Part shown: positions 27,037 to 48,487 of the stretch, piece by piece
Position numbering within the stretch: position 1 is the first letter of the stretch
Layout: each line of letters opens with the position of its first letter
Assembly: GCA_934090935.1 (NCBI GenBank)
Contig: CAKOKD010000002.1
Span: 25,438 to 89,437 of the forward strand
Length of the DNA: 64,000 nucleotides
Reading direction: 5' to 3'
Source: an uncultured Bacilli bacterium
Lineage (GTDB): Bacteria > Bacillota_I > Bacilli_A > RF39 > UBA660
Position numbers and translations under genes: made by a program
The notes under the pieces: model-generated
Databases searched by the model: none
The model's input: only the letters and a program-made list of their open reading frames with translations
Told to the model about the DNA's origin: nothing

Positions 27037-27181
27037 AAGACTTATTTCAATAAAGAAATAAGTCTTCTTTTTATAAAAACAAACTATTTACACATAATAA
27101 AAATGAATATACAAAATACAATAAAAATGTTGTATAATATAAGAAACAATAGGAGAGCAAAATAAAAAAGACGACAAAAGT

Positions 27182-27231
27182 AATGTAAAACAGAATAATG
27201 CCCTTGAAAATCGGGGGGGTATTATAAAATA
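27182..27231 (+). promoter_or_regulatory. Family promoter copy 1: AATGTAAA-N14-TTGAAAATC-G7-TATTATAAAAT
   Basis: AATGTAAA at 27182-27189, TTGAAA at 27204-27209, G7 at 27213-27219 and TAAAAT at 27225-27230. The same architecture precedes the 36820 and 47518 genes. Confidence 0.6.
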
Positions 27232-27255
27232 AAAAATAGATGAGGTGTATTTAAA

Positions 27256-28548
27256 ATGAAGAAAAGGAGTGCAATAATAGTTGCAATAGTTTTTATGATG
27301 ATTGGATTTGCAGCAGTAAGTACATCATTAATAATAAATGGAAATACAAAAGTATCCGAAAACAATGAAGATTTTTCAGTAATATTTACTGCAGCTTCAT
27401 TAGATGGAGAAGATGTGTATTCATCAGTAGTAGATGATACAAAAAAGACAATTACATTTACAAGTAAAGATCTAAAGAAAATCGGAGACACATCAACCCT
27501 AACATATGAAGTAACAAATAATTCAGCAAACTATGATGCAGATGTTAAAGTAACATGTGTACCGAAGACTGGAACAACAGCAAAATATACAAGTATAAAA
27601 AACAAGTTAGACAATGATGCCACAGTAGTAAAAGCCAAAGAAACATTAAATGGAACATTAACAGTAACGCTTGATAAAACATCAATAGAAGAAGTAAGTG
27701 AAGAATATACATGTAAACTAGAGTTCAATGCAGTAGAAAGAGAAGAACTGGGTTATAATGGACCTACAGAGTGGACATTTGATTACACTGGAGGAGAACA
27801 AACCTTTATAGCACCAATGTCTGGAACGTACAAATTAGAAACATGGGGAGCACAAGGCGGAAGCAGAAATGGATATAAAGGCGGATACGGTGGATATTCA
27901 TATGGTAATATAATATTGAAGCGTAGTGACGAAGTATATATTAACGTTGGTGGTAGTGGATCTAATCTAAATGGAGGATACAACGGAGGTGGATCCAGAT
28001 CTGACGATAGTAGTAGCTGGGTTGCTGGAAGCGGAGGTGGAGCCACTCACATAGCAACAAAATCCGGAACACTTACAACTTTTGGAAATAATAAAAATAA
28101 TATTTTAATAGTTTCTGGCGGAGGCGGCGGAAGTTCGATGAGTACTGGTGGTGTATTTAGTGCCAATGGTGGCTCCGGCGGAGGCTATGTAGGAGTAAGT
28201 ATCCAAAAATCTACTGGTGGAAGTCAAACAAGTGGCGGTTTAGATGCGAAAGGAGTAATTAATTCTTCTTTTGGCAAGGGAGCATCTTGTTATAATGAAG
28301 GAGCTGGCGGAGGCGGATTTTATGGCGGTGGTTCTGGATCCCATTCTGAAATTGGATATTCAGGAGCTGGTGGCTCCGGTTATATTGGAAACACCCTTTT
28401 AACTGAAAAATCAATGTATTGTTATAACTGTGCTACATCTGCTGAAGAGTCAACTAAAACAATTTCAACTACATGTACAAGTGCTACACCAACAGCTAAT
28501 TGTGCTAAACAAGGAAATGGATACGCTCGAATTACTTTAATAAAATAA
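27256..28548 (+). CDS. Family member 1: shared signal peptide and N-module fused to an ALK/LTK-type glycine-rich domain
   Basis: N-terminus MKKRSAIIVAIVFMMIGFAAVSTSLIING...EEYTCKLEFNAVER. It continues with WTFDYTGGEQTFIAPMSGTYKLETWGAQGG..GGYGGYSYG..VGGSG..GGYNGGG..GSGGGATHIA, the hallmark of Pfam Gly_rich (PF12810) as I recall it. Confidence 0.75.
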   Translation: MKKRSAIIVAIVFMMIGFAAVSTSLIINGNTKVSENNEDFSVIFTAASLDGEDVYSSVVDDTKKTITFTSKDLKKIGDTSTLTYEVTNNSANYDADVKVTCVPKTGTTAKYTSIKNKLDNDATVVKAKETLNGTLTVTLDKTSIEEVSEEYTCKLEFNAVEREELGYNGPTEWTFDYTGGEQTFIAPMSGTYKLETWGAQGGSRNGYKGGYGGYSYGNIILKRSDEVYINVGGSGSNLNGGYNGGGSRSDDSSSWVAGSGGGATHIATKSGTLTTFGNNKNNILIVSGGGGGSSMSTGGVFSANGGSGGGYVGVSIQKSTGGSQTSGGLDAKGVINSSFGKGASCYNEGAGGGGFYGGGSGSHSEIGYSGAGGSGYIGNTLLTEKSMYCYNCATSAEESTKTISTTCTSATPTANCAKQGNGYARITLIK

Positions 28549-28569
28549 TCGCAAAAACGCGATTTTTTT
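28548..28569 (+). terminator. Rho-independent terminator
   Basis: ATCGC-aaaaac-GCGAT followed by T6. Confidence 0.65.
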
Positions 28570-28615
28570 CTTTCACGCATAAAAAAACGACTAAAAAGTC
28601 GCTTAATTTCTTTAT

Positions 28616-28692
28616 TGGTGACCCGTACGGGATTTGAACCCATGAATGCATGCGTGAAAGGCATGTGTGTTAAACCACTTCACCAACGGGCC
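28616..28692 (-). tRNA. tRNA-Glu (anticodon UUC), CCA encoded
   Basis: The reverse complement reads GGCCCGTTGGTGAAGTGGTTTAACACACATGCCTTTCACGCATGCATTCATGGGTTCAAATCCCGTACGGGTCACCA. It folds as a cloverleaf with anticodon loop CTTTCAC. A TTGACA-18-TATTAT promoter lies at 28703-28732 (-) and a terminator hairpin at 28581-28603 (-). Confidence 0.9.
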
Positions 28693-28807
28693 ATGCAAAT
28701 AGATAATACTATATTTTCTATAATGATGTCAATAGAAAAAAATATAAATTAAAAAAATATATACTTTTTGCACAACGTGATATAATAAATATATAGAAGG
28801 TGTAAGT

Positions 28808-30274
28808 ATGAGGAGAGTTAAAAAAAAGTTTATTAAATTTAACAATTTATACATTGAAATAACAAGAATAACTTTGTCTTTATTCATATTCATAATAAGC
28901 ATGATTTTATCAAAAAATATCTTTGCTCCTAAAAAGATCTATTCTCTAGTTTTAAACGGAGAAGAAAAGACAGAGGTAACGATAAAAAATGAGTATAAGG
29001 ATGCTGGTTTTGAGTTCTTTGAAAATGATGAAGTAATTGAACCTGATAAATTAAATATCAAAGTAAAAAATGATGTTGATACTAATAATTTAGGTCAATA
29101 TTCATATCTATATGAGATAACTTATAATAATAAAACTTATACAACAAAAAGAATTGTTAACGTTATAGATGATGTTCCTCCAGTAATAAAAACTGACATC
29201 GAAAACGTTGAGATATATTCCTGTCAAAAGGATAGTAAACTTAATCTAACATTTACTGCTGAAGATAATTATGATGGTGTAATCACGGATAAAGTAACGG
29301 AGAAAATTGAAGAAAATAAAGTTATTTTAAGTGTCGTTGATTCATCTGGAAATCAAACTATAAAAGAAATACCTTTAGTTGAAACTGAGGAACCAAGTCC
29401 AAAGATAAATCTTAATGGAAAAGAAATCGTTTATGTTAAATTAAATGATAATTACACCGAAGAAGGAGCAACTGCTTTTGATGCTTGTGATAAGCCTCTT
29501 GATGATGAAGTTGTTATTGAAGGCACAGTTGATACAACTAAAATAGGTTCTTATGAAGTAAAATATTCAGTAACAAGCAATGAAAAAACTAGTTCTAAAA
29601 CGAGAACGGTTATTGTTTATGATGGAACCAATAGCGACATTATAGCTGAAAATCGGGAAAAGGTCGTTTATTTAACATTTGATGATGGACCTGGAAGATA
29701 TACTGAAGAACTTTTGGATATTCTAAAAAAATATAACGTAAAAGCAACATTCTTTGTAACCAATCAATTTAAATCCTATGTACCTTTAATCAAAAGGGAA
29801 AGTGAAGAAGGGCATACAATCGCGGTTCATACCTTGACTCATAAATGGAGCATATATGATTCAGTTGAAACATATATCAAGGATTTTAACGACATGAATA
29901 ATATTGTAGAAGAATATACAGGAGCGAAAACTAATCTATTTAGATTCCCTGGAGGAAGTTCTAATACCATCAGTAGAGGACATTCAAAAGGAGTTGTTTC
30001 TGCAATAGCAAGTGAAATGACTAAAAGAGGATACGTTTATTTCGATTGGAATGTTGATTCTTGTGATGCAGCTGGAGCAACTTCAAGTCAAATATATAAA
30101 AATGTAACAACAGGAATAGGAAGAAAAAAGGAATCAGTTGTTCTTATGCATGACATAAAAAGAAATACAATCGATGTAATAGAGGATATAATTGTATATG
30201 GATTAAACAATGGTTACACGTTTGATACTTTAAATGTGTCATCTCCGACTGTACACCATCACATAAATAATTGA
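28808..30274 (+). CDS. Polysaccharide deacetylase (NodB homology domain) with N-terminal anchor and Ig-like domains
   Basis: VYLTFDDGPG and HTLTHKW NodB motifs. Two repeats of the type DAG/ATAFDA...DD..V... resemble Ig-like (DUF5011-type) domains. Confidence 0.85.
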   Translation: MRRVKKKFIKFNNLYIEITRITLSLFIFIISMILSKNIFAPKKIYSLVLNGEEKTEVTIKNEYKDAGFEFFENDEVIEPDKLNIKVKNDVDTNNLGQYSYLYEITYNNKTYTTKRIVNVIDDVPPVIKTDIENVEIYSCQKDSKLNLTFTAEDNYDGVITDKVTEKIEENKVILSVVDSSGNQTIKEIPLVETEEPSPKINLNGKEIVYVKLNDNYTEEGATAFDACDKPLDDEVVIEGTVDTTKIGSYEVKYSVTSNEKTSSKTRTVIVYDGTNSDIIAENREKVVYLTFDDGPGRYTEELLDILKKYNVKATFFVTNQFKSYVPLIKRESEEGHTIAVHTLTHKWSIYDSVETYIKDFNDMNNIVEEYTGAKTNLFRFPGGSSNTISRGHSKGVVSAIASEMTKRGYVYFDWNVDSCDAAGATSSQIYKNVTTGIGRKKESVVLMHDIKRNTIDVIEDIIVYGLNNGYTFDTLNVSSPTVHHHINN

Positions 30275-30319
30275 TTTATAACAATATTTAATTTATAATT
30301 AACATGTGAGGTGTTGTAA

Positions 30320-31297
30320 ATGGATAGTAAAAAGGATGTAAACAACAAACAAAAAAATTATTTAACTAAAAAAGAGAAAGAAAATATTAGAAAAGGTGTA
30401 CTAGAAGAAATAAATGATGAAATGCGTTCTAACTTATGCGAAAATGTGATGAATGATATAAATGAACGTATCAATGATGAATATAAGGAAACTTTGAAAG
30501 AGACTATATCAAATGAACTTATTTCTGATATAAAAGAAAATATTAAAGCTGACGAAAAAAGAATGACAAGGAGAAAAAGTTTTAAAATTGTAAGACTTTA
30601 CATTTACATTATATTGCTTATGGCTTGTTCAATCTTTTTGGTATATAAACTTTATATAACAGGTAATTTGGACATTGCAAAAGAGATTAAAGTATCTACA
30701 ACTTCTACAACAACAGCCGTAGTTAAAGATTTAAAATGGTACATGAACAAATATGGCAATATTTTAAACAATATAAAAATTGACAATCTATCTCTTCTTA
30801 ATGGAACTTATGATATAAGTAAAATCGATATAAAGGATAAACTTGCACTAGCATATAATAATCTTTCAAGTGATGCTACTCTTAAAGATGGAATGATCTA
30901 TAAGGTTGATGAAAATAGCTTAAAGGAATCATATAAAAACCTATTTGGAACTGAAGATGGTTATGCTCCCTCATCATTTCAAGTAGGGAAAACGTCATTT
31001 GCTTATTCTTCATCGTCTTTATCGTATATAGCAGTAACTAGCGAGGATGTTAAACCAAATGATGTTGTTATGGAAATAACTAACATAGAAGAAGTGGATG
31101 AAACACTAGTGGTTGAATGCATAACTGCACTTGTTAAAGATAATAAGATATATAATATCAATAATTTAGAAACTGAAGTAAAAGAATATATATCAGGAGA
31201 ATCATTAAAAGGAATCGAAGCATCCTTAACTAAAAATAAAATAACATTCACAAAAACTAATGATAATTATTATATAAGTTCAATATCTCGTATTTAA
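30320..31297 (+). CDS. Bitopic membrane protein, function unknown
   Basis: GAGGTG RBS. A charged N-terminus, one TM helix (IVRLYIYIILLMACSIFLVYKLY) and an extracytoplasmic domain. Confidence 0.5.
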   Translation: MDSKKDVNNKQKNYLTKKEKENIRKGVLEEINDEMRSNLCENVMNDINERINDEYKETLKETISNELISDIKENIKADEKRMTRRKSFKIVRLYIYIILLMACSIFLVYKLYITGNLDIAKEIKVSTTSTTTAVVKDLKWYMNKYGNILNNIKIDNLSLLNGTYDISKIDIKDKLALAYNNLSSDATLKDGMIYKVDENSLKESYKNLFGTEDGYAPSSFQVGKTSFAYSSSSLSYIAVTSEDVKPNDVVMEITNIEEVDETLVVECITALVKDNKIYNINNLETEVKEYISGESLKGIEASLTKNKITFTKTNDNYYISSISRI

Positions 31298-31322
31298 TAT
31301 GCAATTTTGCATATTTTTTTTT
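31297..31322 (+). terminator. Rho-independent terminator
   Basis: ATATGCAA..TTGCATAT followed by T9. Confidence 0.6.
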
Positions 31323-31379
31323 GTTTTAGAAGAAAAATGCATATTTATCGGTAAAGATATTTATGAGGAGGTATATGTT

Positions 31380-31790
31380 ATGGGATATGAAAGCGAACTT
31401 AATGATTTATTTGTAGATGATGAACTTTTTTCTTATGCTATAAACGATATTACCAATCAACATGAAATAAATTCATCTATTAGACTTGGTAGTATATTAA
31501 ATCGTATAAAAATCGATTATGGTTTGCAAGGAATAAGACAAACAGTTAGTTTTATAAATAAAATATCAGCGACTAAAGTGGTGTTCAATGATTTGAGAAA
31601 AACCATGAAATTCTTTGAATACATATCAAAAGGTATGCGTATTTCTTATAAGATAACTATGGACCATTACAAAATGTTGCTTAAATTAAATGATACTAAA
31701 GAAATCAATGATTATATCGATATATGCGCTGCAAACAAGTTCAATGTTGATGATTTATCGGTTATGTTAAATGATAAAAATAAAAGTTGA
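31380..31790 (+). CDS. Hypothetical protein
   Basis: The ATG at 31380 follows a GAGGAGG RBS. The longer track ORF would run through the upstream terminator. Confidence 0.45.
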   Translation: MGYESELNDLFVDDELFSYAINDITNQHEINSSIRLGSILNRIKIDYGLQGIRQTVSFINKISATKVVFNDLRKTMKFFEYISKGMRISYKITMDHYKMLLKLNDTKEINDYIDICAANKFNVDDLSVMLNDKNKS

Positions 31791-31866
31791 TTAGTTTACA
31801 TTTATTAAAAGTATTTTATATATTTACTTTTTTCTTATGTTATAATGGTTGTATAAGGTGAGAATT

Positions 31867-32568
31867 ATGGAATTTATAGAATTAAAAAATGTTTTTAAGG
31901 TTTATAAAAATGGTGTAACCGCACTTGCAGATGTAAGTGTTTCGATAAGCGCTGGAGAATTTGTGTTTATCATTGGTGAATCCGGATCTGGTAAATCGAC
32001 ACTTACAAAGCTTCTATATCGTGAAGAAAAACCAAATAAAGGTAGTGTCTTTGTTGGAGGAGTAAACGTATCAAGTCTTAGAAACAGCAATGTATATAAA
32101 TTGAGAAGAAAGATTGGAGTTGTTTTTCAAGACTTTAAATTGCTTCCAAAATTGACTGTATATGAAAATGTTGCATATCCTCTTGAGAGCTATGGTATGG
32201 ATAAAACAGAGATAAAGGAAAAAGTTTTAAAGGCGATTGAAAGGGTAGGATTAAAAAACAAACTAAGAAGTTATCCTAATCAATTATCCGGAGGAGAACA
32301 ACAAAGAGTTTGTATAGCTCGTGCTATTGTAAATGAACCTAAACTCATTATATGTGATGAGCCAACAGGAGATTTAGACCCTAAGATGAGTAAAGAGATA
32401 ATGGATGTTATCAATAATATCAATAAAGAACTTGCATCGACTGTAATTATGGCAACGCATGATAAAGAGATCGTAAACAGAATGAAAAAACGTGTTATCG
32501 CGATTCATAATGGAGTTTTAGTATCTGATAAGAAGAAAGGAAGTTATATTGAAGATGAGAATATTTAG
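31867..32568 (+). CDS. ftsE: Cell division ATP-binding protein FtsE
   Basis: Walker A GESGSGKST, signature LSGGEQQR and Walker B LIICDEPTG. ftsX follows. Confidence 0.9.
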   Translation: MEFIELKNVFKVYKNGVTALADVSVSISAGEFVFIIGESGSGKSTLTKLLYREEKPNKGSVFVGGVNVSSLRNSNVYKLRRKIGVVFQDFKLLPKLTVYENVAYPLESYGMDKTEIKEKVLKAIERVGLKNKLRSYPNQLSGGEQQRVCIARAIVNEPKLIICDEPTGDLDPKMSKEIMDVINNINKELASTVIMATHDKEIVNRMKKRVIAIHNGVLVSDKKKGSYIEDENI

Positions 32569-33451
32569 AATATTAGGAAAAAGTTTTACTAATGCATTTA
32601 AAAGTATATTCCGTAATTTTTCTCTTAGTTTAGCTTCTATATCTTGTACTGCAATTACTCTAATCTTAGTGTCGATTGCCTTACTTACAACCTATAACGT
32701 CAATTCTATGACTAAAAACATTGAAGGTACACTTACTATAATCGCATTTATAGATGATAAATCAACTGATGAGGAAATAGAAAACATTAAAGCAAGTGTT
32801 GTTGCAATAGATAATATTGATGAAAATAAAACGATTTATCGCAGTAAAGACGAGATAAAAAATGAGCTTCTTCAAGATGAAGATATGAAGGAGTCTTTGG
32901 AAATATTGGATGATAATCCACTAAGTCCAACGCTTGTATTAAGTGTAAAAAACGTAAGAAAAATAACATCCACTGCAAATGAAATCAAAGCAATAGATAA
33001 AATTACTGCTGTAAAGTATGGCGAAACAGTAGTAAATAAAGTTTTAAATGTATTTGAAGTTGCTAGAAATTCATGTGTTATAGCTGTAATAGCTTTAGTA
33101 ATTGTTACAATGTTCTTAAATGAAAATACAATTAAAATAACTATTTTTTCAAGGAAAAACGAAATTGAAATTATGCGTTTAGTTGGTACAAGCAACACAG
33201 TAATCAAACTACCATTTATATTTGAAGGATTTATTCTTGGACTTGTTGGATCGATTTTGCCAATCGTGATTACAATATTTGGATATTTTTACTTTTATGA
33301 TGTATCAGGAGGAAAGCTATATACGGATTTATTGATGTTAGTAAAACCTAGTGATATTGTTTATGTTTCAAGTTTTGTTTTAGCAATTATCGGATCATTA
33401 GTTGGTATATTTGGATCGACAAAAGCAGTAAGGAGATATTTAAAAATATGA
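32555..33451 (+). CDS. ftsX: Cell division permease-like protein FtsX
   Basis: One TM helix, a large extracellular loop and three C-terminal TM helices. It overlaps ftsE. Confidence 0.85.
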   Translation: MRIFRILGKSFTNAFKSIFRNFSLSLASISCTAITLILVSIALLTTYNVNSMTKNIEGTLTIIAFIDDKSTDEEIENIKASVVAIDNIDENKTIYRSKDEIKNELLQDEDMKESLEILDDNPLSPTLVLSVKNVRKITSTANEIKAIDKITAVKYGETVVNKVLNVFEVARNSCVIAVIALVIVTMFLNENTIKITIFSRKNEIEIMRLVGTSNTVIKLPFIFEGFILGLVGSILPIVITIFGYFYFYDVSGGKLYTDLLMLVKPSDIVYVSSFVLAIIGSLVGIFGSTKAVRRYLKI

Positions 33452-34647: not shown

Positions 34648-34700
34648 GTATATAAAAGTTATTAAATGGCATATTATTATTAGAACTTAGGAGGAAGACA

Positions 34701-35912: not shown

Positions 35913-35987
35913 TACATCTTTTTTCTTGTCTATAAATTTATTATGTGATAATATTAATATTGTAGAGTAATGATAAGGGGAGTATTT

Positions 35988-36572: not shown

Positions 36573-36579
36573 GTGAATT

Positions 36580-36708
36580 ATGAAAAAAGAATTTGAAAAT
36601 GTTTATTTAGAATACGTTGATGAACTACCAAAGGTAGAAGAAACTCAAAAGATGAGCAAAGAAGAACTTTTAAGAAAATTAGAGGAAACTCAAAAGATAA
36701 ATTTATAG
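36580..36708 (+). CDS. Possible small charged protein (42 aa)
   Basis: It is not in the ORF track because it is shorter than 60 aa. AGGTGA RBS 4 nt before the ATG. It translates as MKKEFENVYLEYVDELPKVEETQKMSKEELLRKLEETQKINL. Confidence 0.3.
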   Translation: MKKEFENVYLEYVDELPKVEETQKMSKEELLRKLEETQKINL

Positions 36709-36745
36709 ATGATTTGCAATAATTTGCAAATTTTTTTGTGAAATA

Positions 36746-36795
36746 AATGTAAACACATAAAATGTCCTTGAAAATCGGGGGGGGTATTATAAAAT
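36746..36795 (+). promoter_or_regulatory. Family promoter copy 2: AATGTAAA-N14-TTGAAAATC-G8-TATTATAAAAT
   Basis: AATGTAAA at 36746-36753, TTGAAA at 36768-36773, G8 at 36777-36784 and TAAAAT at 36790-36795. Confidence 0.6.
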
Positions 36796-36819
36796 AAAAA
36801 ATAGATGAGGTGTGTTTAA

Positions 36820-39120
36820 ATGAAGAAAAGTGCAATAATAGTTGCAATAGTTTTTATGATGATTGGATTTGCAGCAGTAAGTACATCATTGATAATAAAT
36901 AGTAATATAAAAGTATCAGAGAATGAAACAGATTTTGATGTATATTTTAGTAAAGCAAGATTGGATACAATAGATGTATATGAAAGTGTAATAAGTCAAG
37001 ATAAAAAGACAATAACATTTAATACTAATAATTTAAGTAAAGTAGGAGATAAATCAGTACTTACATATGAAGTAACAAATAATTCAAATAACTATGATGC
37101 AGAAGTGCGTGTTACATGTACACCAGAAAACAATAAATATACAAGTATAACAAATACAATAGATGTAGAAAATGACATAGTACCAGCAAGAAATACAGCA
37201 AAAGGGAGAGTAACAATAACATTAAATAAAACATCATTAGAAGAAGTGAGTGAAGAATATACATGTTCGTTAGAGTTTAATGCAGTAGAAAGAGAAAGTA
37301 TAGGAATATCTAGTAATAAACCAGCAGAACCAGAATTAACTAATGATTTAGTTCCAGTAATAATAGCAGACAATGGAACTGTAAAAAAGGCGGATACAAC
37401 AACTGAATGGTATAATTATGAAAACAAAGTTTGGGCAAATGCCGTAATATTAAAAGATGATTACGATGATTTAAATGAAAATGGAAAAATAAATGGGGCA
37501 ACAAAAGAAGATAATCAAGTAACCTTAGATGGAGTAGACGATTATATTAATTTAGGATTAGAAAACTATGATTTTAAAGATAGTATGACATTGGCGATAA
37601 AATTAAGATTTAATAAAGATGACTCTGTTCAAGAATTCTTTGGGAATTGGGAAGTTGGTGGAATGGGAATTGGATATGGTGGGTATAATAATAAAAAACT
37701 TGTTGCCGCTATGTATGATAAATCATCATCAAGTTACGTATCATTTTTTTCTAATCAAACAATCAAAAAAAATAAGGAATATTTAATTGCTATTAGCTAT
37801 GATGGAAAAAATTTAAAATTATATATTGACGGCAAATTAGATAAAAGTGTTGCAACAACTGGAAATATTGGTTTAAGTAGTCAACCGATATTTATTGGTG
37901 CAAATCCAAGTCCAAGTGGAACACATGTTAATTATTCAAATATATCAGTGAAAAAAGCAGCGATATATGATCGAGCATTAAGTGAAGAAGAAATAACTAA
38001 ATATTATAAAAATGACATAATAATCAATGATGATACAGATTTACTAAAATATGTTAATTTTGAAAAAACAACTGCAAATGATGAGATAATACCAGAAAAT
38101 AATATTGAATCATATTTTGTATGGATACCAAGATACAAATATAAATTATTTAATGTAGACAATTATAGTTTAACAACAGTAGCAAGTGCATCCGAAGTAG
38201 AAAGTAAAGCGCAAGAGATAGAAATAGAGTTTGAAAGTAGATATGATAAAGTATCAAATGGAAGCAAAAATGGAGAGTGGTTGACTCACCCAGCATTTAC
38301 AAGTTTTGATACAAATGGATTCTGGGTAGGAAAGTTTGAAACCGGATATAAAGGAGCAACAACAACAACTGCTGCTCAAGTAAATGAATCAGATTTTACA
38401 AAAGTAATAATAAAACCGAATGTATATAGTTGGAGAAATATAACAGTAAAGAATATATTTGAAACGAGTTATAACTATAATAGAGATGCAGATTCACATA
38501 TGATAAAGAATACAGAATGGGGAGCAGTAGCATATCTTTCACATTCCAAATATGGAATAGATAAAGAAATAAATATAAATAATAATTCATCATATAAAAC
38601 AGGATATTCATCTTTACCAACATTAGACCAAAGCTCATATCCAGGGACCTATGGAGATGGAGAAAATTATAATCAACCATACAATACTAGTATTGGTTAT
38701 CTTGCCTCAACAACAAGAAATATAAGTGGAGTATACGATATGTCCGGTGGAGCATGGGAATATACAGCTGGCTATATGTCAGGTCAATTAGGAAATAGTG
38801 AAATAACACCAACAAGTTACGATTCAAAATATATTGATGTTTATAGTTCATCAAGTACAATTATATCTTTTAATTATAGAATATTAGGGGATGCAACCGG
38901 AGAAATGGGACCTTTTAATAATTATTTAGAAAAAAATGGGACTTCTTATTATCACGGTAGCTGGTATAATGAAGAAGCTCATTTTATTAATTCATCTTTC
39001 CCATGGTTTTTTCGAGGCGGTTATTGGGATCGTGGAGTGTTGGCTGGAATTTTCTATTTTGATAGATTTACAGGGGGAGTGCATGTAAATGTCTCTTTCC
39101 GTCTAGTATTAACACCATAA
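36820..39120 (+). CDS. Family member 2: shared N-module, LamG/concanavalin-like domain and FGE-sulfatase (C-type-lectin-fold)-like C-terminal domain
   Basis: N-terminus MKKSAIIVAIVFMMIGFAAVSTSLIINS...EEYTCSLEFNAVER. LamG_3 pattern VTLDGVDDYINLG...YLIAISYDGKNLKLYIDGKL...IFIGANPS. SUMF1-like pattern HPAFTSF..GFWVGKFE, NTEWGAVAYL, GVYDMSGGAWEYTAG, FRGGYW and SFRLVL. Confidence 0.75.
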   Translation: MKKSAIIVAIVFMMIGFAAVSTSLIINSNIKVSENETDFDVYFSKARLDTIDVYESVISQDKKTITFNTNNLSKVGDKSVLTYEVTNNSNNYDAEVRVTCTPENNKYTSITNTIDVENDIVPARNTAKGRVTITLNKTSLEEVSEEYTCSLEFNAVERESIGISSNKPAEPELTNDLVPVIIADNGTVKKADTTTEWYNYENKVWANAVILKDDYDDLNENGKINGATKEDNQVTLDGVDDYINLGLENYDFKDSMTLAIKLRFNKDDSVQEFFGNWEVGGMGIGYGGYNNKKLVAAMYDKSSSSYVSFFSNQTIKKNKEYLIAISYDGKNLKLYIDGKLDKSVATTGNIGLSSQPIFIGANPSPSGTHVNYSNISVKKAAIYDRALSEEEITKYYKNDIIINDDTDLLKYVNFEKTTANDEIIPENNIESYFVWIPRYKYKLFNVDNYSLTTVASASEVESKAQEIEIEFESRYDKVSNGSKNGEWLTHPAFTSFDTNGFWVGKFETGYKGATTTTAAQVNESDFTKVIIKPNVYSWRNITVKNIFETSYNYNRDADSHMIKNTEWGAVAYLSHSKYGIDKEININNNSSYKTGYSSLPTLDQSSYPGTYGDGENYNQPYNTSIGYLASTTRNISGVYDMSGGAWEYTAGYMSGQLGNSEITPTSYDSKYIDVYSSSSTIISFNYRILGDATGEMGPFNNYLEKNGTSYYHGSWYNEEAHFINSSFPWFFRGGYWDRGVLAGIFYFDRFTGGVHVNVSFRLVLTP

Positions 39121-39132
39121 CTTTACATTTAT

Positions 39133-39160
39133 AAGACACATTTTGTTGTCTTTTTTTTTT
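39133..39160 (+). terminator. Rho-independent terminator
   Basis: AAGACA-cattttgt-TGTCTT followed by a long T-run. Confidence 0.7.
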
Positions 39161-39192
39161 ATTTATGCTAAATTTTATTAAGGTGATACTTT

Positions 39193-41109: not shown

Positions 41110-41135
41110 GGTAGACAAAACTACCTTTTTATTTT
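41108..41135 (+). terminator. Rho-independent terminator
   Basis: AAGGTAG-acaaaa-CTACCTT followed by a T-run. Confidence 0.7.
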
Positions 41136-41165
41136 ATAATACAAGCATTTAAAGGAGGCCTTTTT

Positions 41166-42080: not shown

Positions 42081-42180
42081 TTTAGACTCAGTTGTTTTTT
42101 TATTATGAAAATAGAATATATTAATTTTATTGATTTAGTATGTATTATTATGATAAAATCTTATTGTTAGAGGTGAAGTT

Positions 42181-42423
42181 ATGGATAAGACAACTCTATT
42201 TGAACTTGATGATATAACAAATGCATTAATTGAAACTACTTTAGACGAGATATATGATGCTTTAAAGGAAAAAGGATATAATCCCGTTAGTCAAATAGTT
42301 GGATATTTAGTATCTGGGGATCCTGGATATATTACAAACTATAAAAATGCTCGTGATAAAATGCTTAATCTTGATCGAAATAAAGTGTTAGAGCTTATGG
42401 TGAAAGCGTACTTAGAGAACTGA
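42181..42423 (+). CDS. ireB: IreB-family regulatory phosphoprotein (UPF0297/YrzL)
   Basis: ALKEKGYNPVSQIVGYLVSGDPGYIT. The size (80 aa) and the position upstream of ruvX also fit. Confidence 0.8.
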   Translation: MDKTTLFELDDITNALIETTLDEIYDALKEKGYNPVSQIVGYLVSGDPGYITNYKNARDKMLNLDRNKVLELMVKAYLEN

Positions 42424-42851
42424 TGAGAACTTTAGGAATGGATTTAGGAACTAAGACTTTAGGTCTTGCTGTTTCCGATAAACTAGGGATAATTGCAAAT
42501 CCTTATAAAACTTTGAGGTATACAGACGTTGATGAACTTGTTTCAGAGGTTGTTTCTTTGATAGATGAGTTAAAAATTGAATCTCTTGTGCTTGGTTTTC
42601 CAAAGAATATGAACAACTCTTTAGGAGAAGCTGTTTCAAGAACAAACATATTTAAGGAAAAACTCGAAAGTAAAACGGATTTAAAGATAAATCTAGTGGA
42701 TGAGCGATTAAGCACTGTTGAAGCTGAAAAGTATCTTATCGGGGCTGATATGAGCAGAAAAAACCGTAAAGAAGTAATTGATGCTGTAGCAGCAAGTATC
42801 ATACTTGATACTTATTTAAAAAGAATGGGAAGTGGAAATAATGTTAGATAA
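42423..42851 (+). CDS. ruvX: Holliday-junction resolvase-like nuclease RuvX (YqgF)
   Basis: LGMDLGTKTLGLAVSD and DERLSTVEAE motifs. Confidence 0.85.
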   Translation: MRTLGMDLGTKTLGLAVSDKLGIIANPYKTLRYTDVDELVSEVVSLIDELKIESLVLGFPKNMNNSLGEAVSRTNIFKEKLESKTDLKINLVDERLSTVEAEKYLIGADMSRKNRKEVIDAVAASIILDTYLKRMGSGNNVR

Positions 42852-43134
42852 TGGAAAAATAGTTATAAAAAATGATAAAGGTGAAGAACTTACATGTGAT
42901 GTTTTATTCACATTTGATTCTGATGAAACTGGAAAAAGCTATATAGCTTACACAGACAATACTAAAGATAGCAAAGGAAATACTAAAGTATATGCAAGCA
43001 CTTATGATAAGAATGGTGATGATATGCAATTAAATCCTTTAACTAGTGAAAAAGAATGGAAAATCATTGATAATATCTTATCCAGTGTATTAGATATGGT
43101 TAAAGAACAAGCAAGCGGTGAAAACCATGAATAA
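42841..43134 (+). CDS. DUF1292 (YrzB) family protein
   Basis: ELTCDVLFTFDSDETGKSYIAYTD is typical. Syntenic with B. subtilis yrzB. Confidence 0.7.
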   Translation: MLDNGKIVIKNDKGEELTCDVLFTFDSDETGKSYIAYTDNTKDSKGNTKVYASTYDKNGDDMQLNPLTSEKEWKIIDNILSSVLDMVKEQASGENHE

Positions 43135-44215
43135 CGATATTGATAAGTTTAATAAAAAGATAAAAAAAGCTTTTTTTATTACTATGATTGTCGCTTTTTC
43201 TTTACTTGTAGTAGCTGGTGGAATAATGTTTTATAATATGTTACCAGTATCAAGTACGTCAAGAGAAGAGATTAGTTTTAAAGTAGAACCAGGTTCTAGC
43301 AAAAACCAAATAATAAATAATTTGAAAAAAGAAGGTTTAATTAAAAGCAAAAACATAACAAAAATAATAGTTAAATTAGGATATCAAAAGGGATTTTTAG
43401 CCGGTAATTATAAATTAAGCAAAAGCATGCCCTTGATGGATATTCTTGATAATTTAACAAATGGAACTAATATCGAAAAAAACGAAATAGCTGTTACTTT
43501 TATAGAGGGTAAACGTTTTACAGAATATATCGATGTAATGGTTAAAAATTTTAACTTTAATAAAGAAGCGGCTATTGAAACTTTAAGTGATAAAACTTAT
43601 TTACAAGAACTTATCAATAAATACTGGTTCTTAACAGATGACATTTTAAAAGATGGAGTATATTATCCTTTAGAAGGATACTTATTTCCAGATACATATT
43701 TCATAAAAAAAGATGCTACTATAAAAGAAGTAGTTGAAGTTCTTTTAAATGGAATGAACACTAAATTAGCTCCATATAAAGAATATTTAGAAACCAACAA
43801 CTTAAATATTACTAGTTTACTTACTCTTGCGAGTGTGATAGAATTAGAAGCAGCACTTGACACAGACAGAAAAGAAATATCCGGTGTATTTCAAAACCGA
43901 ATAAATAAAAATATGTCTATTGGAAGTGATGTAACCACGTATTATGCAGTAAAAAAAGAATTGGGTACTGCTTTAACTCAAAGTGATATTTCTTCATGTA
44001 ATGCATATAATACTAGGGGATCTTGTACTACAGGAATACCAGTCGGTCCGATATGTAGTCCGTCTCTTACATCAATTGATGCAGCAATATATCCAAATAA
44101 AAATGAATATTTATATTTTGTTGCAGACTCAAGTGGAAAAGTTTATTATAGTAAAACAGAAATTGAGCATATTAATACTATAAATGAACTTAAAAGTAAA
44201 GGACTTTGGTCTTAA
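43127..44215 (+). CDS. mltG: Endolytic peptidoglycan transglycosylase MltG (YceG-like)
   Basis: An N-terminal TM helix and a YceG pattern (LASVIELEA, YNTRG...GIPVGPICSP). Confidence 0.85.
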   Translation: MNNDIDKFNKKIKKAFFITMIVAFSLLVVAGGIMFYNMLPVSSTSREEISFKVEPGSSKNQIINNLKKEGLIKSKNITKIIVKLGYQKGFLAGNYKLSKSMPLMDILDNLTNGTNIEKNEIAVTFIEGKRFTEYIDVMVKNFNFNKEAAIETLSDKTYLQELINKYWFLTDDILKDGVYYPLEGYLFPDTYFIKKDATIKEVVEVLLNGMNTKLAPYKEYLETNNLNITSLLTLASVIELEAALDTDRKEISGVFQNRINKNMSIGSDVTTYYAVKKELGTALTQSDISSCNAYNTRGSCTTGIPVGPICSPSLTSIDAAIYPNKNEYLYFVADSSGKVYYSKTEIEHINTINELKSKGLWS

Positions 44216-44229
44216 AGAGGTGTAAAAAA

Positions 44230-44841
44230 ATGAATGATGTTATAAAGGAAATGGAAAGGTATGCTGAGGCAAACAATGTGCCTATAATCGAGCATGATTC
44301 CATAAAATTTATACAAAAATATATTAAACTCAATAATGTTAAAAAAATTCTTGAATTAGGAACTGCTATAGGTTATTCAGCAATTCTTATGGCAAGTGTT
44401 GATGAAGATGTTGAAGTTACTACTATCGAAAGAGATGATAAACGCTACAGAGAAGCTGTAAAAAACGTAAATCGTACAGGAATGGATAAAAGAATTGAAA
44501 TTGTATTTAATGATGCTTTAGACGTTAATCTAGTTGATCATGAATATGATTTAATATTTATTGATGCCGCTAAAGGTCAATATATAAAATTTTTTGAAAA
44601 GTTCCAAAACTATCTATCTAAAGGTGGTGTAATCATCACTGATAACTTAAAATTTCACGGTTTAGTAGCTGATAAGGAAAAAATAGAGTCGAGAAACGTT
44701 TTAGGATTAGTAACTAAAATCGAAAAATATATTGAGTTTTTACGTACTAATGAGGATTTTGTCACTAAATTCTATGATATAGGTGATGGATTATCAGTTA
44801 GTTTTAGGAAGTCTGATGAAGATGGAAAAAATATTGATTAA
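44230..44841 (+). CDS. SAM-dependent O-methyltransferase, YrrM/TrmR-like
   Basis: ILELGTAIGYSA (SAM motif I) and IFIDAAKGQY. It lies upstream of two U32 genes, as in B. subtilis yrrMNO. Confidence 0.75.
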   Translation: MNDVIKEMERYAEANNVPIIEHDSIKFIQKYIKLNNVKKILELGTAIGYSAILMASVDEDVEVTTIERDDKRYREAVKNVNRTGMDKRIEIVFNDALDVNLVDHEYDLIFIDAAKGQYIKFFEKFQNYLSKGGVIITDNLKFHGLVADKEKIESRNVLGLVTKIEKYIEFLRTNEDFVTKFYDIGDGLSVSFRKSDEDGKNID

Positions 44842-45598
44842 TATAAACGATTTAAAAGAAATAGAAGAATATAAGAAAGTTGGAATCACCAATTTTCTTT
44901 TTGCTGTTAAGAATTTTTCTATCGGATATAATTCCTTTGACTTGTGTGATATTCCGGATGATGCATACGTTTATTTAAATAGAGTTATGGACACAGTTGC
45001 AATTGATGAGTTAAAAAGTATTAAGGATGAATTTTTAAGATTTAAAGGAATTATTTTTGAAGATCTAGGCGTTTTCAATATATTTAAAGATACCGGTATT
45101 CCTCTTATTTGGAATCAAGCTCATTTTGCAGTAAATTATAATTCAATTAATTTTCATTTGAAAAATGGATGTACAAGTGCTGTTATTTCAAATGAAATCA
45201 CTAAAGAAGAAATAGATGAAATAATTAATAATTCTACTAAACCACTTATACTTCCAATATTTGGAAAAAACAATATCATGTATTCAAGAAGAACTTTGCT
45301 TACAAATTTTAATAAACATGCAGGACTAAGGGATTATAATGATATGGTTTTAAACGAAAAAATAACTGGTAATGAATTTTTAGCAAGAGAAAGTGAGTAT
45401 GGAACATATATATTTAATAATACTTATTTTAATTATGTTTCTTTAATGCCTAAATATGAGGATATAGTAATGTATTTCTTAATGTTAAATCTTGATTTAA
45501 GTGCAAGTGAAATTAAAAATATACTTGATGGTAAGAATTATGGCGATGATGGCTTCTTAAATAAAAAAACTGTATTTAAATTGGAGGACTATAAATAA
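44822..45598 (+). CDS. Peptidase U32 family protein, YrrN-like
   Basis: Called from position and size in the yrrMNO arrangement. It shows U32-like N-terminal barrel patterns. Its start overlaps the upstream gene. Confidence 0.65.
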   Translation: MEKILININDLKEIEEYKKVGITNFLFAVKNFSIGYNSFDLCDIPDDAYVYLNRVMDTVAIDELKSIKDEFLRFKGIIFEDLGVFNIFKDTGIPLIWNQAHFAVNYNSINFHLKNGCTSAVISNEITKEEIDEIINNSTKPLILPIFGKNNIMYSRRTLLTNFNKHAGLRDYNDMVLNEKITGNEFLARESEYGTYIFNNTYFNYVSLMPKYEDIVMYFLMLNLDLSASEIKNILDGKNYGDDGFLNKKTVFKLEDYK

Positions 45599-46794
45599 TG
45601 GAAAATATTGAATTACTAGCTCCAGCTGGTTCTTTAGAAAAAATAAAATATGCTTTTATGTATGGAGCCGATGCTGTATATTTTGGTTATAAAAACTATT
45701 CTTTAAGAGCTAATGCTAAGAATTTAGATTTGGATGAAATAAAAATGGCTGTTGATTATGCTCATTCTTTAGGAAAAAAAGTATATGTTACAGTTAATAT
45801 AGTGTTTCATAATGAGGATTTTAAAGGTTTAAAAGATTATTTGATTTATTTAAGTAAAATTCAAGTTGATGCGATAATTACAAGTGATGTAGCCGTTATG
45901 AATATGATTCGTGAAAATAACATAGATTTATGTATACATGTATCAACTCAAGCATCAATTTTAAATTATGAAGCTGCTTTATTCTATAAGGATTTAGGAG
46001 CAACTAGAGTAGTTTTAGCACGTGAAGCAAATAAAGAAGATATAAAAAGAATAAAAAGGGAAACTGGATTAGAAATTGAATGCTTTGTTCATGGAGCGAT
46101 GTGTACAAGTATAAGTGGTAGATGTGTGCTTTCTAATTATTGTACCAACAGGGATTCCAACAGAGGCGGATGTGCTCAAATATGTCGCTGGACTTTTGAC
46201 TATGAAAAAGATGGTGAAAAAGTAAGTGAAGAACCATTTTCAATGACTCCAAAGGATTTAAATATGGTACCTTTTATTAAAGATATGGTTGATACTGGAG
46301 TTAATTCATTTAAAATTGAGGGAAGAATGCGTAGCATTTATTATGTATCTACTGTAATACTTATTTATAGAAGATTAATTGATAAAATTTTAAATAATAC
46401 TTTAACTCCTGAATATTCAACATATGCTTTAAATATTTTAAACCGTGTAGCTAATCGTGAATCAACTCCACAATTCTTTGATAAACTTCCTGGAGTAGAT
46501 GAACAATATTATTTAGGAAGATGTGAATATTCTAATCAAGATTTCTTAGGTTTAGTCATAGACTATAAAGACGGAATTGCAACAATAGAGGAAAGAAATT
46601 ATTTCAAAATAGGTGACGAAGTTCAATTCTTTGGACCATCAACAGAAACTAAAAATTTTCGTATAGAAGAAATCCTAGATGAAGACGGAAAAACAATGGA
46701 AGAAGCTAATCATCCTCAAATGATTGTTAAGATTCGTGTGCCATTTGAATTAAAAAAATATGATATGATGCGTTTAAAAGTGTTTGACTTTTAG
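45598..46794 (+). CDS. Peptidase U32 family protein, YrrO-like
   Basis: ELLAPAGSLEKIKYAFMYGADAVYFG, the Cys cluster HGAMCTSISGRC...C..C, and KIEGRMRS. Confidence 0.85.
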   Translation: MENIELLAPAGSLEKIKYAFMYGADAVYFGYKNYSLRANAKNLDLDEIKMAVDYAHSLGKKVYVTVNIVFHNEDFKGLKDYLIYLSKIQVDAIITSDVAVMNMIRENNIDLCIHVSTQASILNYEAALFYKDLGATRVVLAREANKEDIKRIKRETGLEIECFVHGAMCTSISGRCVLSNYCTNRDSNRGGCAQICRWTFDYEKDGEKVSEEPFSMTPKDLNMVPFIKDMVDTGVNSFKIEGRMRSIYYVSTVILIYRRLIDKILNNTLTPEYSTYALNILNRVANRESTPQFFDKLPGVDEQYYLGRCEYSNQDFLGLVIDYKDGIATIEERNYFKIGDEVQFFGPSTETKNFRIEEILDEDGKTMEEANHPQMIVKIRVPFELKKYDMMRLKVFDF

Positions 46795-46864
46795 ACCATT
46801 ATGTAGTAATCTTATGAAAGTAGTTTTGATAAACAAAAATTTATTTAAAGAAGGGTGACTAATT

Positions 46865-47335
46865 ATGCCAGGAAAAAAAGAAATTAAATTGACTGCTAAT
46901 GGTTATTTAGAAGTTGAAAATGAACTAAATAAATTAAGAGAAGAAGACAGACCAAGAATTATTCAAGCTATTAAAGAAGCAAGAGCTCAAGGTGACTTAT
47001 CTGAAAATGCCGACTACGATGCAGCTAGAAATGAACAAGCTCAAGTAGAAGCAAGAATTAAAGAACTTGAATATATGATTGAACATGCTGTTATCATAGA
47101 AGAAGCTCCAAAAGATGTTGTTGGTCTAGGTTCAACTGTTGAAATAGAATATGTTGATGATGGAGATACTGAAGAATATAAAATAGTAGGTTCTCTAGAA
47201 GCTGATCCGTTTGAAAATAAGATCAGTGATGAATCACCAATAGGTGCTGCTTTATCTGGTAAGAAAGTAGGAGACATAGTTAAAGTTCCAAGTCCAAACG
47301 GAGATTACGATGTTAAAATTGTTAAGATATCTTAA
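46865..47335 (+). CDS. greA: Transcription elongation factor GreA
   Basis: ARAQGDLSENADYDAARNEQA and the C-terminal pattern SPIGAALSGKKVGD. Confidence 0.9.
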   Translation: MPGKKEIKLTANGYLEVENELNKLREEDRPRIIQAIKEARAQGDLSENADYDAARNEQAQVEARIKELEYMIEHAVIIEEAPKDVVGLGSTVEIEYVDDGDTEEYKIVGSLEADPFENKISDESPIGAALSGKKVGDIVKVPSPNGDYDVKIVKIS

Positions 47336-47442
47336 CAATTTTTTTATGGATTTTTTTACTTTACACATAAAAAAACAAAATAATTAAAATACAACAAATA
47401 TGTAGTATAATAAAACTATACAGTAGGATATTTACAGGAAGT

Positions 47443-47492
47443 AATGTAAACTCTCCAAAATGACTTGAAAATCGGGGGGGGTATTATAAAAT
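47443..47492 (+). promoter_or_regulatory. Family promoter copy 3: AATGTAAA-N14-TTGAAAATC-G8-TATTATAAAAT
   Basis: AATGTAAA at 47443-47450, TTGAAA at 47465-47470, G8 at 47474-47481 and TAAAAT at 47487-47492. Confidence 0.6.
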
Positions 47493-47517
47493 AAAATAGT
47501 AGAAAGTAGGGAATAAT

Positions 47518-48369
47518 ATGAAGAAGAAAAGTATGCTTATAGTAGCAATATTACTAATGAGTATTGGATTTGCAGCAATTTCAACAACATTAATAATAAA
47601 CGGGTCTGCTAAGGTAAGTGAAAATCAAGATGACTTCTCAGTTATCTTCACAGCTGCAACATTAGATGGAAAGGATGTATATTCATCAGTAGTAGATGAT
47701 ACAAAGAAGATAATTAATTTCACAACAAGTGATTTAAAAACACTTAATCAAACAAGTATATTAAATTATGAAGTAACAAATAACTCAAGTAACTATGATG
47801 CAGAAGTAAATGTAACGTGTGTACCAAAGACTGGAACAACAGCAAAATATACAAGTATCAAAAATAAACTAGATAATGATGCAACAGTAGTTAAAGCAAA
47901 AAGTTCAGTAAATGGAACATTAACAGTAACACTAGATAAGGTAGCAACAGAAAGTGTAACCGAAGAATATACATGCAAATTAGAATTCAATGCAGTAGAA
48001 AGAGATACATTAGGAGTAACAAAATTAACATACTATTATGCATTTGGAACACCAACAACAGCAAGTGCAACAGATTATACAACATTAGGAAAAAATGTAT
48101 TTGTAAGATTGGGGTCTGATGATTCAAAAGCAGTATGTATAAATGATAATGGATTATTTTGTATCAAACCAAATGATTATGACAATTCAGTTTTAGCATT
48201 AAAAAATCATTTTGGAGAATCGGCTTGTAGTGACGATGGTTCTAACTTCAACTGCAACTCTGATGCATTCAGTTGCAATGCTAATTCATATGGCAACGTG
48301 AATTGCGACGATAACTCGACTAATGAGTACTGCATTGTGTACCAGGATGGTCGTGTTGCGTGCCGCTAG
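47518..48369 (+). CDS. Family member 3: shared N-module fused to a short Cys-rich C-terminal domain
   Basis: N-terminus MKKKSMLIVAILLMSIGFAAISTTLIING...EEYTCKLEFNAVER. The tail has 10 Cys (CINDNGLFC...CSDDGSNFNCNSDAFSCNANSYGNVNCDDNSTNEYCIVYQDGRVAC). Confidence 0.75.
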   Translation: MKKKSMLIVAILLMSIGFAAISTTLIINGSAKVSENQDDFSVIFTAATLDGKDVYSSVVDDTKKIINFTTSDLKTLNQTSILNYEVTNNSSNYDAEVNVTCVPKTGTTAKYTSIKNKLDNDATVVKAKSSVNGTLTVTLDKVATESVTEEYTCKLEFNAVERDTLGVTKLTYYYAFGTPTTASATDYTTLGKNVFVRLGSDDSKAVCINDNGLFCIKPNDYDNSVLALKNHFGESACSDDGSNFNCNSDAFSCNANSYGNVNCDDNSTNEYCIVYQDGRVACR

Positions 48370-48455
48370 TCTTGCCTCCCTGGATTATATCTAAAAATCT
48401 AAAATCTATCTTTTGATTTATCAAAAGATGTTGAGGAGTATAAGAATATTTAAAA

Positions 48456-48487
48456 TAAGATGTGTGAATTACATATCTTATTTTTTT
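48456..48487 (+). terminator. Rho-independent terminator
   Basis: TAAGATGTGT-gaatt-ACATATCTTA followed by T7. Confidence 0.7.

Follow-up and report, generated by a model that had tools for sequence, protein, structure and literature searches.

Candidate promoter-spacer phase variation in a modular family of predicted surface proteins from uncultured human-gut Bacilli

We examined a 64,000 nt stretch of contig CAKOKD010000002.1 (positions 25,438 to 89,437; referred to throughout as the window) from an uncultured Bacilli bacterium, in which three genes, here designated m1, m2 and m3, share an upstream region and an N-terminal module and encode mutually unrelated C-terminal domains. The three genes belong to a large family, probably of secreted or surface-anchored proteins, that is carried by an uncultured lineage of human-gut Bacilli and appears to be subject to phase variation. 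Family promoters typically contain a tract of eight G residues (G8) between predicted −35 and −10 hexamers, and this arrangement is best read as slipped-strand phase variation acting on a family of modular surface proteins, a reading to which we assign a probability of approximately 0.6 on the basis of sequence comparisons. The anatomy of what would be a variable surface-protein family controlled by simple sequence repeats (SSRs) and built on an undescribed N-terminal domain is solid, and the predicted type of mechanism is a classical one.

The window has a GC content of about 29%. Open reading frames (ORFs) for m1 (27256-28548, 430 aa), m2 (36820-39120, 766 aa) and m3 (47518-48369, 283 aa), all on the forward strand, were present exactly at the coordinates given by an earlier sequence-only reading of the window. 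Their N-terminal module (the N-module, residues 1 to approximately 166) is encoded at 27256..27753 in m1, 36820..37311 in m2 and 47518..48015 in m3, and in the m1 protein it comprises a Lys-rich N-terminus, a hydrophobic helix, a linker and a sandwich that ends in EFNAVER. In the alignment the modules of m2 and m3 are 66% and 77% identical, respectively, to that of m1; tblastn searches matched the three copies with E-values of 1e-55 to 1e-84 and returned no further copy in the window. The similarity stops just past the motif EEYTC(K/S)LEFNAVER, and the C-terminal parts, or heads, are unrelated to one another, so that the constant module with unrelated heads that had been proposed was borne out by both the alignment and the Pfam matches. 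The m1 head (27754..28548, including the stop codon) is an ALK/LTK-type glycine-rich domain (GRD) that matches PF12810 (ALK_LTK_GRD) over aa 189-429 with an E-value of 2.7e-32 and a score of 113.1 bits against a gathering cut-off of 24.5. The m2 head (37312..39120) consists of a Laminin_G_3 domain (aa 237-392, E 2.8e-14) followed by a C-terminal domain of approximately 340 aa, and that of m3 (48016..48369) is a Cys-rich tail of approximately 115 aa with eight Cys residues and no Pfam family match. The head types named in the sequence-only reading thus hold for the ALK-type, LamG and Cys-rich parts; its FGE-sulfatase assignment for m2 is sub-threshold only, being a weak FGE-sulfatase/C-lectin-like match to the C-terminal domain (E 0.02, 14.9-15.9 bits against a cut-off of 23.3) that covers about 30 residues. 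The proteins end in ...GYARITLIK (m1), ...SFRLVLTP (m2) and ...DGRVACR (m3). Searches of the PDB with phmmer found no relatives of the m1 and m2 heads, and an exact-match look-up of the m2 protein returned no record.

Alignment of the upstream regions revealed a block common to all three genes, GTAAA(A/C)..CTTGAAAATC-Gn-TATTATAAAATAAAA, followed by the ribosome-binding site (RBS) and the ATG. The G tract is G7 in m1 (27213-27219) and G8 in both m2 (36777-36784) and m3 (47474-47481). No other run of six or more G (or C) occurs in the window, which contains 8 G-hexamers compared with a mean of 1.9 in shuffled sequences. The shared promoter claimed for the three genes is therefore real as a common motif but not as an identical tract, that of m1 being one G shorter than those of m2 and m3. 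In m2 (36768..36795) and m3 (47465..47492) the promoter scan called predicted hexamers TTGAAA and TAAAAT (10 of 12 matches in each case) separated by a 16-bp spacer that includes G8. The proximal promoter of m1 (27204..27230) has the same predicted hexamers, with TTGAAA at 27204-27209 followed by ATC, G7 and TATTA and then TAAAAT at 27225-27230; it was not called because these hexamers lie 15 nt apart and the scan accepts spacers of 16-18 bp, and on account of its 15-bp spacer the m1 promoter is predicted to be weak or OFF. All three genes thus carry a homopolymer of at least about 7 nt between predicted −35 and −10 hexamers, the feature by which promoter-spacer SSR phase-variable genes are recognised. 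The tract ends 36-38 nt 5′ of the ATG in most paralogs, which leaves room for a 5′ untranslated region (UTR) of about 20 nt including the RBS. Two other placements of the −10 hexamer were considered and rejected: TATTAT directly 3′ of the tract lacks a conserved hexamer 17 bp upstream, and GAAAAT with the transcription start site (TSS) inside the tract would have TGTAAA, a poor −35, and is at odds with the TTGACA that a divergent lineage carries at the assigned −35. Rfam identified only a tRNA-Glu in the window, which means that the conserved upstream block corresponds to no known RNA element.

Scanning one genome per species yielded 79 loci (L001-L079) from approximately eight metagenome-assembled genomes (MAGs), all of them from the human gut and labelled 'uncultured Bacilli bacterium' (Hadza), HGM10793 or Firmicutes bacterium CAG:582. 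In the scanned loci hmmsearch identified 95 full-length members, often several to a locus and sometimes in tandem. The two MAGs nearest to the window contain at least 23 and at least 27 copies, and related gut MAGs at least 20 each; the idea of three special dispersed cassettes was accordingly not borne out, m1 to m3 belonging to a family whose copy number is at least 20-27 per genome. In many cases the contig stops a few to about 150 nt away from the promoter motif (L002, L003, L012, L016, L021, L088, L093, L115, L130, L132 and L139), and since the promoter and N-module shared by the paralogs form a repeat at which assemblies break, the MAG copy numbers are probably underestimates; an interpretation of these contig ends as tract heterogeneity was rejected in favour of repeat-induced assembly breaks. 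Family-bearing contigs reach 1.06 and 1.35 Mb, which suggests that the genomes are small.

The common promoter proposed in the sequence-only reading was conserved in these related genomes, with the sigma-70-type consensus TTGA(A/C)A-ATC-G8-TAtTA-TA(A/T)A(A/C)T, in which G8 makes up 8 of the 16 spacer nucleotides. A divergent lineage with different flanks has the same layout, a perfect −35 and again a 16-bp spacer (TTGACA-ATC-G8-TATTA-TATACT). Alignment of the paralogs showed that promoter conservation is limited to about 35 nt 5′ and about 30 nt 3′ of the tract, where the bases AATC and TAT that flank the G residues are also conserved, as is a GTAAAC box about 20 nt 5′ of the −35 that is not kept in the divergent lineage. 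Within the roughly 0.4 Mb covered by loci L001-L079, 47 of the 51 runs of six or more G are family promoters.

Seven intact paralogs carry interrupted tracts that would not be prone to slippage, examples of interrupted or replaced tracts being GGGGAGGC, GGTTGGTG, AGTGGCAG, GGGGAGGAG and AAAGATAAAG. Their spacers are nonetheless 16 bp (L061, L073, L074), 17 bp (L036) or 18 bp (L018, L033, L026) long. The retention of 16-18 nt supports the assigned hexamers as the real −35 and −10, indicates that a working promoter needs the length of the spacer and not the identity of the G residues, and identifies G8, with its 16 nt, as a state compatible with expression (ON). Such 'locked' derivatives would be expected around contingency loci.

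All tract lengths were taken from consensus assemblies, among which they range from G6 to G9 with exactly one G9. The most direct comparison is with locus L146, an independent assembly that encodes a protein identical to m1 and differs by one single nucleotide polymorphism in 4.3 kb, but has G8 where the window has G7; the m3 tract is G8 in three other assemblies. Sample VOFC01 contributed five G6 tracts and one G7 (L089, L090, L096, L100, L111 and L140), which were discounted because neighbouring A-runs at start codons are expanded and break the ORFs, pointing to homopolymer noise. Outside this sample approximately 9 of 107 tracts differ from G8. The description of the promoter as switchable is plausible, given the G tract in the spacer, the length differences between assemblies and the preserved spacer length of the interrupted paralogs. 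As a separate observation, at about position 770 of locus L045 (CAKOJJ010000025) an apparent RNase R/II-type coding region (...LEKIGGGNYILYVSIADVSHY...) contains a G8 run flanked by promoter-like sequence (TTGAGAAAATC-G8-TAAC), which may be coincidental or mark a site prone to frameshifting.

Under phase variation, the N-module would export the protein and hold the variable head away from the cell, and the heads (C-type-lectin-like DUF6273 variants, the ALK-type Gly-rich domain, LamG with the FGE-like domain and the Cys-rich tail) would act as putative ligand binders. Most members would be transcribed from the sigma-70-type promoter with G8 in its spacer, where slipped-strand mispairing during replication would gain or lose G residues and so shift the −35/−10 spacing. 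Tracts of G8-G10 (16-18 bp) would be ON, and those of G7 or fewer (15 bp or less) weak or OFF. By this scheme m2 and m3 would be ON and m1, with G7, down or OFF from its G-tract promoter. Independent switching of the paralogs would then give combinatorial variation of surface heads in a clonal population, for example under pressure from IgA, phage or the niche, and recombination between paralogs would reshuffle 5′ regions and heads over evolutionary time. Mosaicism consistent with the latter is visible in sliding-window comparisons within the window: m1 and m2 share 85-98% nucleotide identity across the 5′ UTR and signal peptide, whereas in the sandwich m1 is 85-88% identical to m3 and 57-60% identical to m2. 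A given syntenic slot usually contains the same head type in different genomes, with few swaps (the GRD against a 375-aa type behind a 323-aa gene, and Cys-rich against DUF6273 elsewhere).

Several observations weigh against phase variation. G8 is strikingly constant, accounting for 44 of 47 tracts from genome loci and for 52 of 63 from metagenome loci (approximately 88%), with no tract of G10 or longer in either set, and classical contingency loci vary more in length than this. If every spacer of 16-18 bp is ON, an additional assumption is required to account for the scarcity of G9 and G10, such as contraction-biased slippage or selection for exactly 16 bp; near-fixation of G8 might then reflect tracts resting at the shortest ON length under contraction-biased slippage combined with selection for expression. 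The single-base homopolymer difference between m1 and L146 could be an assembly or sequencing error, of a kind that VOFC01 shows to occur. Approximately 48 non-redundant family genes in the loci lack the tract, and about a third of the family genes in relatives have no G-tract promoter. Some of the tract-less members stand downstream in tandem arrays without a promoter of their own, and others rely on a different conserved promoter-like block, TTTACACATAAT...TTGTATAAT...AGAATGGTGTGTG-ATG, which is the sole promoter of many paralogs in relatives (L054, L057, L049, L075 and others). This distal block also stands in tandem 5′ of the G-tract promoter in m1 (TTTACACATAAT ... TTGTATAAT, 27087..27138, from the upstream alignment) and in m3 (TTTACACATAA ... 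GTATAAT, 47358..47411, from sequence comparison), both on the forward strand, and m2 has the G8 promoter only, directly behind a terminator. A tract-independent transcript may therefore exist for m1 and m3; the distal block could give basal expression, and the G tract might sit in the 5′ UTR of a longer transcript. A related genome encodes MutL, so that slippage rates may be modest, and surface localisation and head function are read from the domain types.

The N-module is a widespread domain in its own right. An exhaustive search of 1.84 billion cluster representatives (at 50% identity) with an N-module hidden Markov model (HMM) returned 1184 proteins at E≤1e-3, of which 659 reached E≤1e-10. 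In these proteins, which range from 83 to 2446 aa, the module is always N-terminal and starts at residue 1. Partner domains in 87 diverse members were Flg_new (Listeria-Bacteroides repeat), ALK_LTK_GRD, DUF285, leucine-rich repeats (LRRs), CarboxypepD_reg, DUF6273 and Lcl_C. These partners, DUF285 being a Mycoplasma domain, are common in annotated bacterial surface proteins and adhesins. The module matched no Pfam, NCBIfam, PHROG or PDB-sequence family beyond weak Ig-like noise, which agrees with the earlier failure to recognise a named family, and neither the cluster look-ups nor the other sources gave a name for any member.

An AlphaFold2 model of the N-module built from a 52-sequence alignment (mean predicted local distance difference test, pLDDT, of 90.9) consists of a helix (aa 3-20), a coil linker (aa 21-41) and a seven-stranded Ig-like sandwich (aa 42-160); a model of m3 from its single sequence was unusable (pLDDT 41). 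The conserved motif GFAAVSTTLxING..DF (GFAAVSTSLIING..DF, aa 17-41) spans the helix end and the linker, as do the near-invariant residues G17, F18, A19, L25, G29, D39, F40 and F44, and the linker has the lowest confidence in the monomer model. Such invariance at the helix end and linker would be unusual for a disposable signal peptide, and either an uncleaved N-terminal anchor or cleavage near AVS|T is possible. The N-termini of m1 to m3, MKK(R/K)S..IVAI..IGFAA(V/I)ST(S/T)LIIN, contain no lipobox Cys, and no LPXTG motif occurs anywhere in the three proteins. A sortase-anchored adhesin was accordingly rejected for want of a C-terminal LPXTG, and a type IV pilin-like (class III) signal because the hydrophobic stretch (aa 6-27) has GFA at its centre, with no Glu at +5.

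Standalone N-module proteins of 140-200 aa also exist, one of them in a conserved operon (L147 2560-6009, also L148-L153). There, two 468-aa secreted paralogs of the m2 C-terminal domain flank a more distant N-module protein of 200 aa, and the end of the 200-aa protein and the starts of the 468-aa proteins share a ...NVQDAIEEIYNK / ...IQDCLDKLAEVIG-like motif. The operon adjoins mraZ-rsmH-ftsL-pbp and has no G tract. The relative that carries it also encodes MutL and a PASTA-domain penicillin-binding protein (PBP), which indicates that the lineage has a cell wall and may be mismatch-repair proficient.

A rival explanation is that G8 is a fixed cis-element, a recognition site or structural spacer that works only as G8 and through which a dedicated regulator or sigma factor co-regulates the family as a regulon. 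Exactly G8 in approximately 88% of tracts across at least eight MAGs and dozens of metagenomes, including the lineage with different flanks, is what such an element would produce, as are the conserved AATC and TAT flanks and the GTAAAC box. We nevertheless consider it unlikely, since intact paralogs tolerate unrelated sequence of similar length in place of the G-run (AGTGGCAG, GGTTGGTG, AAAGATAAAG), G6, G7 and G9 variants occur, and the divergent lineage has not retained the GTAAAC box. More doubtful still is an ordinary, constitutively expressed family of paralogous adhesins, in which the shared 5′ region with its G8 would be a by-product of duplication and gene conversion and the length differences would be assembly errors. 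There is clear mosaicism and gene conversion among the paralogs, many contigs break at the repeated promoter, homopolymer noise is evident in VOFC01, and a large share of family genes works without a tract. Neutral inheritance is hard to reconcile, however, with an intact G8 in a genome of approximately 29% GC, in two promoter sub-lineages that have otherwise diverged, or with the location of nearly all runs of six or more G in the genome loci at the promoter position. The coding sequence of the N-module has meanwhile fallen to 55-65% amino acid identity while G8 was kept, so that the promoter core is more conserved than the protein.

The remaining alternatives concern the N-module. The sequence-only reading had been loosely reminded of TasA/camelysin-type fibre subunits, and the module might on that view be a polymerising TasA or donor-strand-type subunit, with the linker (aa 21-41) as donor strand and the heads decorating a fibre or pilus. 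The concentration of conserved residues in the helix end and a low-confidence coil linker would fit, as would the standalone N-module proteins and the conserved operon that holds one of them, and TasA/camelysin proteins of Firmicutes likewise have an N-terminal signal-like hydrophobic segment followed by a beta-sandwich. The sequence and fold comparisons speak otherwise: there was no Peptidase_M73/TasA match in Pfam at E≤1 for the three proteins or 52 N-modules, and no TasA in a profile search of PDB sequences at E≤10. Foldseek searches of the model against PDB and BFVD returned only generic Ig-like sandwiches (adaptin/GGA ear, MSP and WSSV VP28-type, E≥1e-3, TM 0.3-0.5), among which the TasA fibre 8aur_A ranked 43rd (E 0.059, TMq 0.35). 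No SipW-like peptidase, tapA-type gene or assembly gene lies beside m1, m2 or m3. A TasA/camelysin relationship was therefore rejected, and a polymerising subunit of this type seems very improbable. A broader proposal, also improbable in our estimation, is that the N-module is the handle of an undescribed Gram-positive surface-display or fibre system, in which the linker would be recognised by dedicated machinery or serve as a donor strand, phase-variable heads would be mounted on a common scaffold, and the mraZ-adjacent operon would be the core.

Slipped-strand phase variation of this kind has close precedents. In Mycoplasma hyorhinis, work by Yogev and colleagues in 1991 and by Citti and Wise in 1995 reportedly described a family of Vlp lipoproteins with a poly(A) tract in the promoter spacer. 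The family described here resembles vlp in being a multigene family of a small-genome, low-GC organism of Bacilli/Mollicutes type, in having a conserved promoter and signal peptide region with divergent C-terminal parts (surface-exposed in Vlp), and in the placement of a homopolymer between the −35 and −10; Vlp members switch independently, giving combinatorial expression. It differs in that the tract is poly-G and not poly-A and hardly departs from a length of 8, a lipobox Cys is absent, the conserved part includes an Ig-like domain of about 120 aa, and the variable parts are unrelated globular domains in place of size-variable tandem repeats; without a lipobox or repeats, it does not belong to the Vlp family. 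The porA gene of Neisseria meningitidis similarly has a poly-G tract in the −35/−10 spacer, and its expression is graded or switched by departure from the optimal spacing. Unlike the present family, porA is a single gene of a Gram-negative organism, with 9-11 G and frequent variation between strains.

In Treponema pallidum a poly-G tract between the −35 and −10 of tp0126 controls transcription through spacer length, the promoters of tpr genes (E, G, J, F, I and L) carry poly-G tracts of which approximately 8 G is permissive, and populations consist to about 80% of one tract length with minority variants present (PMC7864442). The tpr and tp0126 genes are thus like the present family in the use of poly-G promoters for paralogous putative surface proteins. 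They differ in that T. pallidum is a spirochaete with a GC-rich genome and outer-membrane beta-barrels, that the Tpr proteins lack a shared N-terminal domain bearing exchangeable heads, and that the tprL tract lies just 5′ of the TSS and not in the spacer. Given that a conserved 5′ region with a homopolymer in the spacer is the design of M. hyorhinis vlp and of T. pallidum tpr/tp0126 and N. meningitidis porA (the latter two in PMC7864442), the earlier claim of a novel architecture was too strong. For the lineage itself, a literature search on CAG-582 yielded nothing relevant, and one on phase variation and RF39 yielded no paper on it.

At least seven head types were distinguished by clustering of the C-terminal tails. 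The commonest is a DUF6273 form of approximately 400 aa (58 ORFs), followed by the m3 Cys-rich tail (35 ORFs), a form of approximately 505 aa with weak DUF6273 similarity (26 ORFs), the Gly-rich ALK-type domain (18 ORFs), a form of approximately 375 aa with weak Lcl_C/DUF6273 similarity (5 ORFs), the m2 type (3 ORFs) and a 436-aa type (1 ORF). Giant members, P0182 (1717 aa), P0195 (1917 aa) and the gene at L124 5294-11768, combine the N-module with a CarboxypepD_reg-like domain, many Flg_new repeats and one or two of the heads found in the window family; P0182 has DUF6273 and then the m3 Cys-rich tail at its C-terminal end. The m1 head (aa 171-429, window 27766-28545) matches several PHROG phage families of unknown function with E-values of about 1e-31 to 1e-33. 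DUF6273 heads have been described as phage receptor-binding domains and as target domains of diversity-generating retroelements (PMC10743442), and heads may be exchanged with phages.

If phase variation is correct, abundant uncultured Bacilli with small genomes would use homopolymer switches in the manner of mycoplasmas and treponemes on at least 20 modular surface proteins, implying strong diversifying pressure at the cell surface from IgA, phage and host or dietary glycans. Phase variation in gut commensals is mostly documented as invertible promoters in Bacteroidota and some Firmicutes. The N-module family, comprising 1184 clusters and lacking a model in Pfam or NCBIfam, serves as a marker of their probable surface proteome, and the G8 promoters provide simple markers whose tract-length spectra can be read from existing metagenomic reads.

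The proposal that each of the three genes is monocistronic with its own promoter and terminator is supported as regards gene organisation and terminator-like hairpins on the forward strand, with the qualification that the terminator scan called a 3′ hairpin for m1 only (28547..28564). Those of m2 (39133..39160, an AT-rich AAGACA/TGTCTT hairpin with a T-run) and m3 (48454..48487, imperfect and AT-rich, with a T-run) were found by eye and gave no call in the scan. Upstream of m1 the scan identified the terminator hairpin of the preceding 323-aa gene (27035..27068, a 14-bp stem followed by a T-run), which would shield m1 from upstream transcription. A hairpin read from the sequence just 5′ of the m2 promoter (ATTTGCAA-TAAT-TTGCAAAT and a T-run, 36712..36737) would likewise act as an insulating terminator. 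This hairpin directly follows a 42-aa ORF (MKKEFENVYLEYVDELPKVEETQKMSKEELLRKLEETQKINL, 36581-36709), situated between a 200-aa gene and the m2 promoter, that may or may not be a real gene.

The genes next to m1, m2 and m3 are housekeeping genes or otherwise unrelated. Among the neighbouring genes named in the sequence-only reading, the tRNA-Glu (on the reverse strand near m1), an M50/RseP peptidase, a GyrB/ParE-type protein, GreA, an MTS methyltransferase and RpoB were confirmed. Also present are a polysaccharide deacetylase, a U32 peptidase and the 323-aa and 200-aa ORFs, both of unknown function. The gene described as cadherin-like instead encodes a papain-family cysteine protease with a C-terminal type I dockerin (23939-26068), which is followed by the 323-aa ORF and then m1, and whose dockerin hints at cohesin-dockerin surface assemblies in small-genome gut Bacilli.

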